Origin: a virus | Lineage: Duplodnaviria > Heunggongvirae > Uroviricota > Caudoviricetes | Length of the DNA: 51,015 nt | Reading direction: 5' to 3' (one strand) | Virus record (IMG/VR): IMGVR_UViG_2721755676_000003 | Location: 1 to 51,015 of that record | The notes under the pieces: generated by a model | The model's input: the letters and a program-made list of their open reading frames with translations, nothing else | The model's database searches: none | Told to the model about the DNA's origin: nothing | Translations under genes and position numbers: made by a program | In this document: positions 26,237 to 32,720 of the stretch, piece by piece | Numbering within the stretch: position 1 is the stretch's first letter | Layout: every line of letters begins with the position of its first letter

Positions 26237-27334
26237 ATGGCCACCATCAACGAAAGCCTGCGTGATGAATCGATCGCACATTCAGTCTGGTTAAGCCGCT
26301 ACGCCACCGGCGTGGCAAACCGGATGGTGAAGTTGCTTAACGAGGCGGACGCGGACCTGTCGGCTCGTCTACTGGATGCGCTGGACAAATTGCCGCCGGA
26401 GAGCTTCACCGTTAATCGTCTGGAGAGTTTACTGGGCAGCGCGCGCGAACTTAACCATCAAGCCGTAGCGTCCATGCAGGCAGGGCTCGAAAATGAGTTG
26501 TTGGCGCTGGCAAAGAACGAAGCCAGTTATCAGCTGAGCCTGTTCGATTCCCTTCTGCCATCACAGGTCTTGTCTCACTATCCGCTGCAGGGCATCACCG
26601 CCGATATGGTGTATGCCGCGGCGATGGCGCAACCCTTTCAGGGGAGGCTGCTGAGTGAATGGGCGGAGAATCTGGAATCGGACAGGCTGGCGCGGATAGT
26701 GAACGCCGTTCGAAGGGGGTATCTTGCCGGCGACACGGTAGAAACAATCGCGCGCAGTGTTCGCGGCCACGCCAATAAAGGTTATCGCGACGGCGCGCTG
26801 CAGATGAGCAGGGCAAACGCCGCCAGCATAGCTAAAACAGCTGTGAATCATCTGGCTGCTACAGCGCGCAACAGCTTCACCAGTGCCAACAGCGATATCG
26901 TGAAAGGCAAACAGTGGCTGTCTACGCTGGACAATAAAACCAGCCATGACTGCATTATTCGTGACCTGCTGCGCTACACCATGGATAACAAACCGGTCGG
27001 GCATAAGGTGCCTTACCTACAGGGACCCGGGAAAATTCATTTTTGCTGTCGTTCTACTGAAACCCTGATCCTCAAGTCGTGGCGCGAACTCGGCATTGAT
27101 ATTGATGAGATGGACGAGGGCACTCGTGCCAGCATGGATGGACAGGTACCGGGGAAAACTTCGTATCTGGAATGGCTCGCGCGCCAGCCAGCACAACGCC
27201 AGGATCAGGTTCTGGGTGCCGAGCGTGGCCGTTTGTTCCGCGCGGGTGAAATCAACCTGGCTGATATGTTTACTGACAAAGGCGAATGGATATCCCTGGA
27301 ACGTCTTAAGCAGTTATCAGGTACTGACTACTAA
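26237..27334 (+). CDS. Head morphogenesis protein (Mu gpF / SPP1 gp7-like minor head protein)
   Basis: 365-aa ORF following portal; recalled Phage_Mu_F-like features. Confidence 0.6.
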   Translation: MATINESLRDESIAHSVWLSRYATGVANRMVKLLNEADADLSARLLDALDKLPPESFTVNRLESLLGSARELNHQAVASMQAGLENELLALAKNEASYQLSLFDSLLPSQVLSHYPLQGITADMVYAAAMAQPFQGRLLSEWAENLESDRLARIVNAVRRGYLAGDTVETIARSVRGHANKGYRDGALQMSRANAASIAKTAVNHLAATARNSFTSANSDIVKGKQWLSTLDNKTSHDCIIRDLLRYTMDNKPVGHKVPYLQGPGKIHFCCRSTETLILKSWRELGIDIDEMDEGTRASMDGQVPGKTSYLEWLARQPAQRQDQVLGAERGRLFRAGEINLADMFTDKGEWISLERLKQLSGTDY

Positions 27335-27414: not shown

Positions 27415-28185
27415 ATGTTAATTCGAAACATACTTCTGAAATTCTATGCACCAGAAAGCGGCGGCGAGGGCAGCGGTGGCGTTGGTATCGAAATCACCCC
27501 TGAAATCCAGAAGCTGATTGATGAGCGCGTGACCAGCGAAGTCACTGGCTTGAAATCCAAAAACTCTGAGCTGCTGGGCACCATTAAGCAGCAAAAAGAA
27601 ACCCTGTCTCGCTTTGATGGTATCGATCCTGATGCAGTGCGCGGGATCCTCCAGCGTTTTTCCGACGACGAAGAGGCCAAGCTGATTGCCGCCGGAAAAA
27701 TCGATGAGGTGCTCGATAAGCGCACCGAGCGTCTGCGTGCTGACGTCGATAAGCAAATCAAAGCCGCAAATGAACGCGCGGACAAAGCCGAAGCGTTCTC
27801 CAACAAATTCCGGGATCGAGTTCTGGGCGATGCAATCCGAGCAGCAGCCTCAAAAGCTGGCGCGCTGCCGGAAGCATCCGACGATCTGATTCTGCGTGCC
27901 AAAGGCACATTCCAGCTCAACGACGAAGGCGAGGCCGTAGCAGTTGATGCAAATGGCGATGTTCTGTTCGGTAAAGACGGCAAAACTCCACTAAGCCCGC
28001 TTGAGTGGGCGGAGTCTCTTAAGGAGACGGCTCCGCATCTGTTCCCACGCGCAGAAGGCACCGGCGCGGGCGGACACAAACCAAACGGCGGTGGCAGCCT
28101 GAAACGTTCCGAAATGAGCGCCAGCGACAAAGCGGACTACATCCGCAAGCATGGCCAGCAGGCCTTCCTCAAACTTCCGAAATAA
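27415..28185 (+). CDS. Scaffolding protein
   Basis: 256-aa helical, charged, Ala/Lys/Glu-rich ORF immediately upstream of the major capsid gene. Confidence 0.55.
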   Translation: MLIRNILLKFYAPESGGEGSGGVGIEITPEIQKLIDERVTSEVTGLKSKNSELLGTIKQQKETLSRFDGIDPDAVRGILQRFSDDEEAKLIAAGKIDEVLDKRTERLRADVDKQIKAANERADKAEAFSNKFRDRVLGDAIRAAASKAGALPEASDDLILRAKGTFQLNDEGEAVAVDANGDVLFGKDGKTPLSPLEWAESLKETAPHLFPRAEGTGAGGHKPNGGGSLKRSEMSASDKADYIRKHGQQAFLKLPK

Positions 28186-28197
28186 GGGATTTAAACC

Positions 28198-29151
28198 ATG
28201 GCAACGACTGTTAATACCGACCTGGTTATTTATGACGACCTGGCGCAGACTGCTTTTCTTGAGCGCCGCCAGGACAATCTGGAAGTATTCAACGCTTCCT
28301 CCAACGGTGCGATTTTGCTGGATAACGAACTGATCGAAGGCGATTTCCGCAAGCGAGCCTTCTACAAAGTGGGCGGCTCAATCGAATCGCGTGACGTTAA
28401 CTCCACCGAAAAGGTGACGGGTAAAAAGATTGGCGCCGGTGAAGCCGTATCCGTCAAAGCGCCGTGGAAATACGGTCCATACGAAACTACTGAAGAAGCG
28501 TTCAAACGCCGCGGCCGCTCGGTTGACGAGTTCTCCGAAGTGATCGGCACTGATGTGGCTGACGCTACGCTGGAAGGCTACGTGAAATACGGCTTGAAGG
28601 CCCTGACGGCAGCAATTGGTGCCAACGCGGATATGGTGGTCACCGCCGATATCGAAACAGACGGCAAGAAGACCCTGACACGCGGTCTGCGTAAGTACGG
28701 CGACAAGTTCAACCGTGTCGTGCTCTTCGTTATGCACTCCGCCACTTACTTCGACATCGTGGATGAGGCGATCGCCAACAAAATCTACGAAGAAGCAGGC
28801 GTGGTGGTCTACGGTGGCCAGCCAGGTACGCTGGGTAAACCTGTGCTGGTGACCGACACCATGGACGCGGATGCGATTCTCGGGCTGGTGACCGGGGCGG
28901 TGACTGTTACTGAGTCTCAGGCTCCGGGGTTCCGTTCCTACGACATCAACGACCAGGAAAACCTGGCGATCGGATATCGTGCAGAAGGCGTTGTGAATGT
29001 CGATTTGCTGGGTTACAGCTGGGATACCTCCAAAGGCGACAACCCGGACCTGACCAAAATCGGCACTGCAGGTAACTGGAAGAAGCACTTCACCAGCAAC
29101 AAATCTACGGCTGGTGTACTGATTAAACTGGGATCCGCAGCGGGGGAGTAA
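28198..29151 (+). CDS. Major capsid protein
   Basis: 317-aa ORF after scaffold, strong RBS; position and size typical. Confidence 0.7.
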   Translation: MATTVNTDLVIYDDLAQTAFLERRQDNLEVFNASSNGAILLDNELIEGDFRKRAFYKVGGSIESRDVNSTEKVTGKKIGAGEAVSVKAPWKYGPYETTEEAFKRRGRSVDEFSEVIGTDVADATLEGYVKYGLKALTAAIGANADMVVTADIETDGKKTLTRGLRKYGDKFNRVVLFVMHSATYFDIVDEAIANKIYEEAGVVVYGGQPGTLGKPVLVTDTMDADAILGLVTGAVTVTESQAPGFRSYDINDQENLAIGYRAEGVVNVDLLGYSWDTSKGDNPDLTKIGTAGNWKKHFTSNKSTAGVLIKLGSAAGE

Positions 29152-29432
29152 CGCTGTCAGCGGATAAAATCTCCGCAACCGCTGACAGCACCGATGCGGT
29201 CACCATTTCCCTGAAGTACATGCTAAACGGCGCAGGTGTTTCCGGCAAAACCGTTGCCTGGAATTCAACCGGCGGCACGCTCAGCACTGCCAGTTCTCAA
29301 ACCGGCTCTGCTGGTGGGGCGACGGTCAAACTTACCTCTGATACGGCAGGTACTTTCACAGTCACTGGTACTGTTGATGGTATTGCTAAATCGAGTGAGG
29401 AAATCACCTTCACCGCACCAGCAGCTGGCTAA
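29127..29432 (+). other. Ig-like (Big_2-type) domain ORF in -1 frame overlapping capsid 3' end; possible frameshift extension of the capsid protein
   Basis: Open frame from 29127 encodes ...ADKISATADSTDAVTISLKY...TVKLTSDTAGTFTVTGTVDGIAKSSEEITFTAPAAG, typical of bacterial Ig-like domains; a G5 run (about 29142-29146) lies in the overlap. Confidence 0.35.
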
Positions 29433-29435
29433 TCG

Positions 29436-29951
29436 ATGGGGCGTAAGCCCCATTCAACGGATGCTCAGATGATTATTACTGATATCACCGCCGCTGACGT
29501 TAACAGTTACGCCAGCGAAGATGAACTGGCGTCATTTGCCACGCTGAGAGGAGTTGAGCTGCCTGAAAAGCTCGCACCGTTACTGATTAAGGCGATGGAC
29601 TACCTGGAAGGGCTTGATTGGGTAGGTTACAAAGCAGACCCCCGACAGCCGCTGGCCTGGCCACGCGCAAATGTCATTCTGGATGGACACGACTTCCCAT
29701 CCGACCAGGTGCCGCGGCAGGTTATCACCGCACAATGCATGCTGGCTATCGAGGCGATTGAGGGCGATTTGCTTTCAAGCGTTCGTGAGGCCGCGGTTAA
29801 AACCGAACGTGTCGAAGGCGCCGTAACCATGACCTATGCAGTTGCCGATGGTGAGGTGTTCACACCATCCTACCCGGCGGTAATGGCTATTCTCGGCGAC
29901 CTGGCTGGTGGGCGTGGATATGCAATCAATGCTTTCGCGGAGCGCGCGTAA
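29436..29951 (+). CDS. Putative head-tail connector/adaptor protein
   Basis: 171-aa ORF; position after capsid; no specific motif. Confidence 0.4.
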   Translation: MGRKPHSTDAQMIITDITAADVNSYASEDELASFATLRGVELPEKLAPLLIKAMDYLEGLDWVGYKADPRQPLAWPRANVILDGHDFPSDQVPRQVITAQCMLAIEAIEGDLLSSVREAAVKTERVEGAVTMTYAVADGEVFTPSYPAVMAILGDLAGGRGYAINAFAERA

Positions 29952-32097: not shown

Positions 32098-32409
32098 ATG
32101 GCGACCAAATTCACCCTTCAGCCCAAACCAACATTTAAGGCCAATGTCTCGATCCCCCGAGCCGGCGATGAGGATGGCGTGCTGACCTTCACGTTTAATC
32201 ACAAGCCACTTAAAGAGCTGGCTGACCTGGAAAAACTGGAAGGCAAAACCGCCACTGATTTTCTGATGGAAATCATTGCTGGCTGGGCACTTCCCGATGC
32301 ATTCAACGCGGAAAACCTGTCGGTGCTGCTGGAAAACTATCCGGCGGCAATTAAGGCAATCCCAGAAACCTACTACCGCGAGCTGATGGGGCAGCGCGAA
32401 AAAAACTGA
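32098..32409 (+). CDS. Tail assembly chaperone (lambda G-like)
   Basis: 103-aa acidic ORF ending at a slippery A_AAA_AAC heptamer directly before its stop; upstream of tape measure. Confidence 0.7.
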   Translation: MATKFTLQPKPTFKANVSIPRAGDEDGVLTFTFNHKPLKELADLEKLEGKTATDFLMEIIAGWALPDAFNAENLSVLLENYPAAIKAIPETYYRELMGQREKN

Positions 32410-32720
32410 TAGCGGTTGCCTCTGCGTTCTATACGCCTGAACCCACAGCGGCAGACCTGGCGCCTTACGGGCTTACGCCTGATGACTATGACGATAAGTT
32501 CGTAGATGTCTGGCCCGATATCTGGCCTTTATTCCTGGTGTTTCAGGCTGTTAGTACGCAGTGGCGCACAGGCATTGGAGGTGCATCAGGGCTTGATTAC
32601 AACGTGCTGCCTTGGGTAATGCGCCTGCACCACGTCGAGGATGAGGCAACCGCGCTTTTGGACATCCGAATCATGGAGAGCGCCGCACTAAAAGTTATGC
32701 ATAAAGAGAGGGCGGAATGA
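32098..32720 (+). CDS. Tail assembly chaperone G-T fusion via programmed -1 frameshift (slip at about 32400-32406)
   Basis: Heptamer A AAA AAC at 32400-32406; the -1 frame stays open to 32720 (...KKLIAVASAFYTPEP...MHKERAE), ending where the tape-measure ATG starts. Confidence 0.6.

Follow-up and report, generated by a model that had tools for sequence, protein, structure and literature searches.

A Probable Programmed -1 Frameshift Appending an Immunoglobulin-like Domain to the Major Capsid Protein in a Family of Enterobacterales Prophages

Introduction

How would a phage translate an immunoglobulin (Ig)-like domain that begins at the stop codon of its major capsid gene, in another reading frame and with no usual start codon of its own? 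This question is raised by the IMG/VR virus record IMGVR_UViG_2721755676_000003, a tailed-phage sequence (Caudoviricetes) whose full 51,015 nucleotides (nt) were analyzed and are hereafter called the window. The major capsid protein gene (28198-29151, 317 amino acids (aa), 0 frame, stop codon TAA at 29149-29151) is overlapped at its 3' end by an open -1 frame (29127-29432, 101 codons plus stop); these and all other features described below lie on the + strand. An earlier inspection of the letters, referred to here as the sequence-only reading, proposed that a -1 ribosomal frameshift adds an Ig-like domain to the capsid protein. We found that comparative evidence (the frame relationship, in-frame orthologues, slip motifs, a downstream hairpin and synonymous constraint) supports this proposal, and we assign a probability of about 0.8 to a programmed -1 frameshift appending the Ig domain to the major capsid protein.

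Ig-like C-terminal extensions of phage capsid and tail proteins that are derived from frameshifting are well established (PMC5009743). Whether a mobile Ig domain lands in frame or out of frame is generally accepted to be a matter of chance (PMC5009743).

Results

The gene 5' of the Ig open reading frame (ORF) was identified as the major capsid protein gene from its Pfam family, its place in the gene order and its matches to solved structures. The product is an HK97-fold protein of the Gp13-like family (Pfam PF20036, E = 1.1e-105), which matched solved major capsid proteins, the nearest being 8xb6_M (E = 2.6e-26). The -1 frame is bounded by TAA at 29124-29126 upstream and TAA at 29430-29432 downstream and shares 29127-29151 with the capsid gene. 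The capsid gene and -1 frame coordinates of the sequence-only reading, with an opening at 29127 and an end at 29432, were all borne out. Translation of this frame is proposed only from the slip site onward. In relatives, its upstream opening lies anywhere from -10 to -145 nt relative to the capsid stop, and this variation means that -1 frame coding is not conserved 5' of the slip site.

The extension is a complete Big_1 domain of the intimin/invasin type. Pfam Big_1 (PF02369) matched with E = 9.4e-16 and 58.1 bits against a cut-off of 34.9, covering positions 2-93 of the 93 in its hidden Markov model. The domain spans 29148-29429 (94 codons, VTLSADK...TAPAAG, -1 frame), and the match begins at ORF residue 8, which corresponds to nt 29148 and overlaps the capsid stop codon. 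A Big_2-type pattern had been suggested from the letters, and this did not hold: the Pfam search of the -1 ORF gave zero match to Big_2 (PF02368), and aBig_2, with a cut-off of 27, reached only 16.4 bits. A homologue-derived profile matched the solved intimin and invasin Ig domains 6tpl, 1f00 and 1cwv, the same three that Foldseek matched. The AlphaFold2 model of the domain was all-beta with a predicted local distance difference test (pLDDT) value of 96.4, and it superimposed on intimin D0-D1 with a template modelling (TM) score of 0.89 and a root-mean-square deviation of 0.9 Å. The Ig-like fold anticipated for the extension is therefore present. Its first beta-strand, V-T-L-S-A, starts in codons that overlap the capsid stop, 5' of every candidate start codon. 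A chance origin of the -1 ORF is rejected on the basis of the fold model, the intimin superposition and a ratio of nonsynonymous to synonymous substitution rates (dN/dS) of ~0.09.

No ATG, GTG or TTG occurs in the -1 frame before the domain begins. The first Ig-frame ATG (29220-29222) had been noted earlier as having no ribosome-binding site, and indeed the preceding tcaccatttccctgaagtac contains no Shine-Dalgarno (SD) sequence. This ATG is not the real product start; beginning there would remove ~24 domain residues including the first strands (A-B), and 92% of relatives have Thr (ACN) at this codon. The relatives share no conserved start codon. Database calls for the Ig ORF range from 54 to 118 aa, with starts at CTG (MSADK...), GTG, ATC, TTG or CTG codons upstream inside the capsid gene, or internal ATGs, and some gene callers leave the ORF uncalled. 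The closest deposited phage was Escherichia phage PHB10 (95% nt identity), whose record gives the Ig region as a separate 70-aa hypothetical protein starting from an ATG. Five Klebsiella phage records share the region; some of them carry a GTG-started 91-aa ORF, which in one case bears the name 'cobalamin biosynthesis protein'. Across MK448234, MW862109 and many RefSeq entries, names are erratic for the Ig ORF and the capsid alike; proteins that consist of the capsid alone appear as 'Ig domain-containing protein', 'major tail protein V' or 'YjdB'. These names were probably propagated from fused homologues. A literature search returned no paper on PHB10 or on the virion proteome of this prophage group.

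To place the locus among its relatives, 306 related loci were gathered from IMG/VR, species-representative genomes and GenBank phages. The Big_1 domain was present in 256 of these, lying in the -1 frame in 249, as an in-frame fusion in 7 and in the +1 frame in 0. The overlapping frame is thus kept in homologs, which was a check that the sequence-only reading had named. The seven in-frame fusions belong to Arsenophonus and Phlomobacter, and no separate, non-overlapping Ig gene was seen among the inspected loci. When the hypothetical fusion was used as a query against a protein collection, hundreds of capsid-only matches were returned along with natural in-frame fusions. Specifically, an Arsenophonus protein of 405 aa (P0004) combines Gp13-like and Big_1 domains and shares 74% identity over 99% of the hypothetical fusion; its predicted model (pLDDT 68, moderate) leaves a linker of only ~4 residues from the final strand of the capsid part to the opening strand of the Ig domain. 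Capsids of 401-402 aa from Ewingella, Sodalis and Yersinia (P0018, P0022, P0032, P0039) carry an in-frame Big_2 domain at the same position. The presence of Big_2 in these four proteins and in locus L121, compared with Big_1 here, indicates from sequence an exchange of Ig domains at the C-terminus of the capsid protein. Three other annotated fusions (P0091, P0007, P0093) were rejected as unrelated deletion chimeras. Because natural in-frame fusions exist, a protein with capsid and Ig domain covalently joined is one functional form in this lineage. A -1 frameshift is favored because the domain sits in the -1 frame in 249/256 loci and in-frame orthologues exist.

In place of the Ig ORF, more distant relatives in Pseudomonas, Acinetobacter, Vibrio and other genera carry an unrelated gene 3' of the capsid gene, which starts at an ATG of its own. 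In L086-L089 and L126-L146 (Pseudomonas, Acinetobacter, Halomonas, Neisseria and others), the post-capsid protein is 95-230 aa long, starts at its own ATG and has a conserved N-terminus (MELIYT...GDYP..AYE), and its tail is often charged or coiled-coil. This protein may serve as another type of head decoration or have an accessory role. A megablast of the locus against Escherichia coli complete genomes gave no match. As a check on whether the hairpin and Ig domain move as a module, an exact 17-mer of the hairpin described below was searched in IMG/VR. It had 90 distinct matches, 86 of which belonged to this capsid family by a motif test; L428 was of the same family as well (NWKRHF replacing NWKKHF), and the other 3 matches had no relation to it.

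The capsid gene ends ...GCA GCG GGG GAG TAA. The proposed shift site is G_GGG_GAG (29142-29148), directly 3' of which stands the 0-frame TAA (29149-29151). As the sequence-only reading had pointed out, the overlap contains a run of five G (G5), which was located at 29142-29146. To compare junctions, 126 distinct 130-nt sequences fitting the pattern of TAA plus hairpin were collected, one of which was an unrelated match and one of which was L070 with a broken G-run. Three junction classes were distinguished. Class A (NNG GGG GAG; 97 unique sequences including the window and the G4 variant L313) occurs in Enterobacter, Klebsiella, Citrobacter, Cronobacter, Pantoea and others. Class B (NNG GGA AAG; 18 unique) occurs in Proteus, Providencia and Moellerella. 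Class C (GTA AAG; 9 unique) is Lelliottia-type, with a different capsid C-terminal tail (323 aa). The three slip motifs share one register, each directly 5' of the TAA, so that the window's heptamer lies in the same register as G_GGA_AAG of Proteus and Providencia. The TAA is invariant in all -1-type junctions, and the next base is C in ~92% of sequences. Across 96 unique class A junctions G_GGG_GAG is invariant, with Gly always GGG and Glu always GAG. The codon before GGG is always NNG (GCG, GTG, ACG, ATG, TCG or CCG, encoding Ala, Val, Thr, Met, Ser or Pro). This NNG constraint fits G_GGG re-pairing and is not required by an SD sequence.

Judged from their sequences, the class B and C junctions correspond to a textbook frameshift arrangement. 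In E. coli, G_GGA_AAG belongs to the top three heptamers in shift efficiency, and no tetramer comes close to A_AAG (PMC4066793; PMC5009743). All class C junctions and some of class B have a -1 frame that is open for no more than the last 10 nt 5' of the stop, and a shift is therefore possible only on that motif. Slippage on the non-canonical heptamer of the window itself is something we infer. On G_GGG_GAG, re-pairing of the P-site GGG is perfect, and moving the A-site codon from GAG to GGA leaves a G-U pair at the middle position.

A putative stimulatory hairpin follows the stop codon (29153-29189). It has an 11-bp stem (29153-29163/29179-29189) and a 15-nt loop (29164-29178), begins 4-5 nt after the heptamer and has a predicted free energy (dG) of -21.2 kcal/mol as a stem-loop. 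The 52-nt segment containing the hairpin folds at -23.5 kcal/mol (z = -4.9). All three classes have TAA plus 2 nt, then CTGTCAGCGG, a 15-nt loop and CYGCTGACAG, giving a stem of 10-11 bp, and dG across the relatives is -12.5 to -21 kcal/mol. In 76 distinct sequences, 96.7% of the pair cells were paired, compared with 23-60% when the pairing partner was slid. Changes in the stem are nearly all G-C to G-U or U-A to U-G. One fully compensatory change, G-C to A-U in L293, also converts a conserved CTG to CTA. In Erwinia L311, two adjacent stem bases have changed and both are still paired by wobble, L104 likewise changes through G-U wobbles, and a G-U pair of the stem is A-U in Cronobacter L308. 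Downstream structure is therefore conserved in homologs through structure-keeping changes, another point that the sequence-only reading had asked of the locus. The in-frame fusions of Arsenophonus encode a similar peptide, LSVDKTTATANNSD, with no equivalent hairpin; their segments fold differently, with dG of -5.6 to -10.9 kcal/mol.

Two further structures were considered. An H-type pseudoknot between CCGCA of the loop and a downstream UGCGG finds no support, since in the Proteus/Providencia-type sequences the partner is not kept (ACAG, GTTG, GCTG) and the loop is unchanged. A possible but weaker alternative fold with the lower stem and a CGGA/UCCG upper stem reached -12.1 kcal/mol versus -21.2 kcal/mol for the continuous stem, and both sides of it are invariant. 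The loop (29164-29178, columns 31-45 of alignment A2) was itself invariant even at synonymous sites (GAU AAA, UCC), with an entropy of 0 in 128 sequences. An Rfam scan of the region gave nothing near any gathering score, and no promoter-like or intrinsic terminator site was found between the capsid stop and the Ig ORF.

Substitution patterns show that the Ig frame is under purifying selection. Its dN/dS was 0.09 within class A and within class B and 0.22 within class C, with dS of 0.3-1; synonymous divergence in class A was ~0.97, which is near saturation. Synonymous change is unevenly distributed. Normalized synonymous entropy was 0.18 in the first 14 Ig codons; the remaining codons of the domain had 0.64 (Mann-Whitney p = 1.6e-6), and the capsid tail had 0.51 (p = 2.7e-4 against the first 14 Ig codons). 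Early Ig codons that are essentially invariant include CTG, TCA, GCG, GAT, AAA, TCC, GCT and GAC. The shift site and hairpin are thus conserved beyond coding needs, as a frameshift cassette is, and this nucleotide-level constraint is a stronger argument than formal covariation.

The surroundings of the capsid gene are those of a siphovirus head module, in the order terminase, portal, MuF-like, scaffold and major capsid protein, with the MuF-like protein gene at 26237-27334 and the scaffold gene at 27415-28185. The next gene 3' of the Ig ORF encodes a DnaT_2-like head-tail connector (29436-29951). Its ATG is enclosed by a 7-bp hairpin with a GUAA loop (29436-29453, ATGGGGC-GTAA-GCCCCAT). A similar GGGGC...GCCCC hairpin, often with a T run after it, stands directly 3' of the capsid stop in relatives that lack the Ig ORF (L102, L111-L115, L122), and because of this the Ig ORF can be placed between the capsid stop and a conserved post-capsid hairpin. 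A second -1 frameshift signal, in the classic G/GT arrangement, was observed in the same prophage at 32098-32720. The tail assembly chaperone ORF (32098-32409; Pfam Phage_TAC_4, E = 1e-29) ends ...GAA AAA AAC TGA, and a slippery A_AAA_AAC (32400-32406) abuts the chaperone stop. From there the -1 frame runs to a TGA at 32718-32720; this extension matches DUF1799 (E = 5e-21) and overlaps the tape-measure ATG at 32717.

Discussion

The results are consistent with the following sequence of events. Most ribosomes would stop at the TAA at 29149 and release the 317-aa capsid protein. For a minority, the hairpin (29153-29189) at the mRNA entry channel would cause a delay with GGG in the P site and GAG in the A site. 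The delayed ribosomes would slip back one base on G_GGG_GAG and then read GTA ACG CTG ... in the -1 frame, adding the 94-residue Big_1 domain to give a 411-aa capsid-Ig fusion as a minor product. A tandem slip would give the junction ...LGSAAGE-VTLSADK and the tryptic peptide LGSAAGEVTLSADK, and a P-site slip on GGG would give ...LGSAAGG-VTLSADK and the tryptic peptide LGSAAGGVTLSADK. The fusion would co-assemble into the head, which would present Ig domains on its surface in sub-stoichiometric amounts. Displayed in this way, the domains may provide weak adhesion to glycans or cell surfaces.

How a shift could occur on G_GGG_GAG deserves consideration. By analogy with tRNA-Lys on A_AAG, tRNA-Glu carrying mnm5s2U34, a poor reader of G-ending codons, may help the A-site slip. 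It is possible, and we hold this only tentatively, that G_GGG_GAG before a stop is a genuine uncharacterized bacterial -1 motif that follows this tRNA-Glu logic and is evolutionarily interchangeable with G_GGA_AAG and GTA_AAG before one hairpin. A weaker variant is that the commonest junction type, G_GGG_GAG, has partly switched to SD-driven initiation at the CTG.

Several observations weigh against a frameshift. The heptamer of the window does not fit X_XXY_YYZ, as the sequence-only reading had already recognized. The spacing between a shift site and its structure is usually 5-9 nt, and a spacer of 4-5 nt is at the short end. Support for the hairpin from covariation is modest, most stem positions never varying. 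Ribosomal slippage is annotated in none of the PHB10 and Klebsiella phage records checked. Two relatives depart from the motif: L070 (IMG/VR 2507262057_000001) reads GTG GTG GAG TAA, with the G5 run broken and G_GAG kept, and L313 (Mangrovibacter sp. SLW1, JBDIYA010000020.1) has a G4 run, a capsid gene longer by 6 codons and the Ig ORF in +1. The G4 run of L313 may reflect a defective prophage or a homopolymer sequencing error. Lastly, GGGGGAG is a good SD-like sequence, and a nearly invariant Ig-frame CTG (29154) lies 5 nt downstream. In the systematic E. coli study of Sharma et al., the signal of the G_GG.G tetramer was credited to just such SD-like initiation on a downstream non-AUG codon and not to slippage (PMC4066793).

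These last two points are the core of the best-surviving alternative, that the Ig ORF is a separate gene. Terminating ribosomes or fresh 30S subunits would be captured by GGGGGAG (29142-29148) and start at CTG 29154, and a free Ig protein of ~92 aa would decorate the capsid non-covalently. NCBI pipelines often call MSADK... products from this CTG, Klebsiella and some Enterobacter relatives have a GTG two codons 3' of it, and Cronobacter, Erwinia and Pantoea have a TAATG stop-start overlap, so that some relatives do have a GTG or ATG start. Such starts occur in a minority only, and 92% of sequences have Thr (ACN) where the TAATG lineages have their ATG. The CTG itself is buried in the 5' arm of the hairpin (about -21 kcal/mol), and in L293, where it has become CTA, the compensating change saves the stem and not the codon. 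An SD sequence is absent from Lelliottia-type junctions and weak in several of the Proteus/Providencia type, yet A_AAG or G_GGA_AAG, the stop and the hairpin are kept. The third-position G of the codon before GGG is invariant and would be unneeded for an SD. At the protein level, the V-T residues encoded 5' of the CTG fit the Big_1 profile and belong to modelled strand A, the product would be a lone Big_1 domain with no capsid-binding module, and orthologues fuse the domain covalently to the capsid. A stand-alone decoration gene would be expected to have its own ribosome-binding site, a canonical start and a capsid-binding module; here the sole candidate start is the CTG in the stem, the SD-like run is missing from Lelliottia-type relatives and the product would be a single Big_1 domain. 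We consider a separate gene unlikely.

The TAATG arrangement was seen in L308 (Cronobacter), L311 (Erwinia), L104 (Pantoea) and L053, in which a T after the stop makes an Ig-frame ATG that overlaps the capsid stop. These lineages still keep G_GGG_GAG and the hairpin. Phages of this kind could make both a free and a fused Ig protein.

Much less probable than a separate gene is that the product starts at ATG 29220 (70 aa), as in the ATG-started coding sequence (CDS) annotated for PHB10, or that RNA polymerase slips on the homopolymeric G5 run. The former would lose the ~24 residues of strands A-B at a codon that is mostly Thr in relatives and is preceded by no SD. Transcriptional slippage requires long A/T runs. 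The Proteus/Providencia- and Lelliottia-type junctions have the same architecture with no homopolymer longer than 3 nt, and an RNA hairpin 4-5 nt downstream is the hallmark of a ribosomal shift and not of a transcriptional one. Least credible of all is that a mutation frameshifted an ancestral in-frame capsid-Ig fusion, leaving a decaying and unexpressed remnant, as the in-frame fusions of Arsenophonus, Yersinia and others and the 1-nt G-run change that alters the frame relationship in L313 might suggest, since the selection pattern deduced from the alignments (the low dN/dS in all three classes, an ORF intact in ~125 distinct sequences from many genera, and a junction and hairpin more conserved than the surrounding coding sequence) argues strongly against it. 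Decay, ATG 29220 and transcriptional slippage together account for a very small part of the probability at most.

The programmed -1 frameshift that we favor has several precedents. The sequence-only reading cited T7 10A/10B as the classic case of an Ig-like domain added by frameshifting; the T7 10B extension is not Ig-like, whereas those of T3 10A/10B and Lactobacillus phage A2 gp5A/gp5B are (Atkins et al. 2016, PMC5009743). The general precedent stands with T3, A2, A118, A500, PSA and MSTV1 in place of T7 (PMC5009743, PMC11375127). In Listeria phages, Cps of A118/A500 is made by a -1 frameshift and that of PSA by a +1 frameshift (PMC5009743). As in the T3, A2 and Listeria capsids, the extension here has no start codon of its own, and in-frame and out-of-frame relatives coexist. 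Unlike them, the present case involves a Gp13-like capsid, Enterobacterales prophages, a Big_1 domain and a non-canonical G_GGG_GAG directly before the stop; their fusions have protein evidence, whereas this one is predicted from sequence. In the archaeal virus MSTV1 and its relatives, a -1 frameshift in the capsid gene adds an Ig-like domain, and one relative is fused directly (PMC11375127). There too the frameshift is found in most members and in-frame fusion in a minority, but the host is archaeal, A_AAG_GAA serves as the slippery sequence and the capsid belongs to an unrelated lineage.

Further comparisons can be drawn with better known phages. Like lambda gpG/gpGT, whose slip site is G_GGA_AAG, the Proteus/Providencia orthologues use G_GGA_AAG, and the shift would be a low-level -1 event near the 0-frame stop; unlike in lambda, the product would be a virion component rather than a chaperone, and a downstream hairpin is conserved. 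Bacillus phage phi29 gp8 carries an in-frame C-terminal BIG2 domain. The proposed fusion resembles phi29 gp8 and the capsids of Arsenophonus, Yersinia, Ewingella and Sodalis in being an HK97-fold capsid protein with a C-terminal Ig-like domain, P0004 being its direct orthologue. In such in-frame capsids every subunit has the Ig domain, whereas here only the frameshifted fraction would. T4 Hoc and T5 pb10 also place Ig-like domains on the outside of the capsid, where they have been proposed to act in adhesion, but they are separate genes with their own starts and a capsid-binding domain, unlike the single 94-aa domain with no canonical start found here.

Conclusions

This kind of mechanism is already known. 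The locus itself, with its Gp13-like capsid, Big_1 domain, three interchangeable slip motifs and one conserved hairpin, is apparently undescribed. Hundreds of prophages in Enterobacter, Klebsiella, Citrobacter, Cronobacter, Proteus and Providencia, together with at least 6 phage genomes, have this gene split into a capsid and an arbitrary ORF of 54-118 aa labelled 'Ig-like domain-containing' or 'hypothetical'. It would be better annotated as one joined CDS with ribosomal slippage. Three motifs standing before one hairpin constitute a natural experiment on motif strength, including a non-canonical G-rich heptamer beside a stop. If G_GGG_GAG is a genuine motif, the prophage family would be a natural allelic series in which the slip motif sets the capsid-Ig stoichiometry. 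The Ig extension also marks a natural display site at the capsid C-terminus, and an intimin/invasin-type Ig domain on the heads of temperate phages of gut Enterobacterales would bear on the adherence to mucus or cell surfaces that has been proposed for phages.

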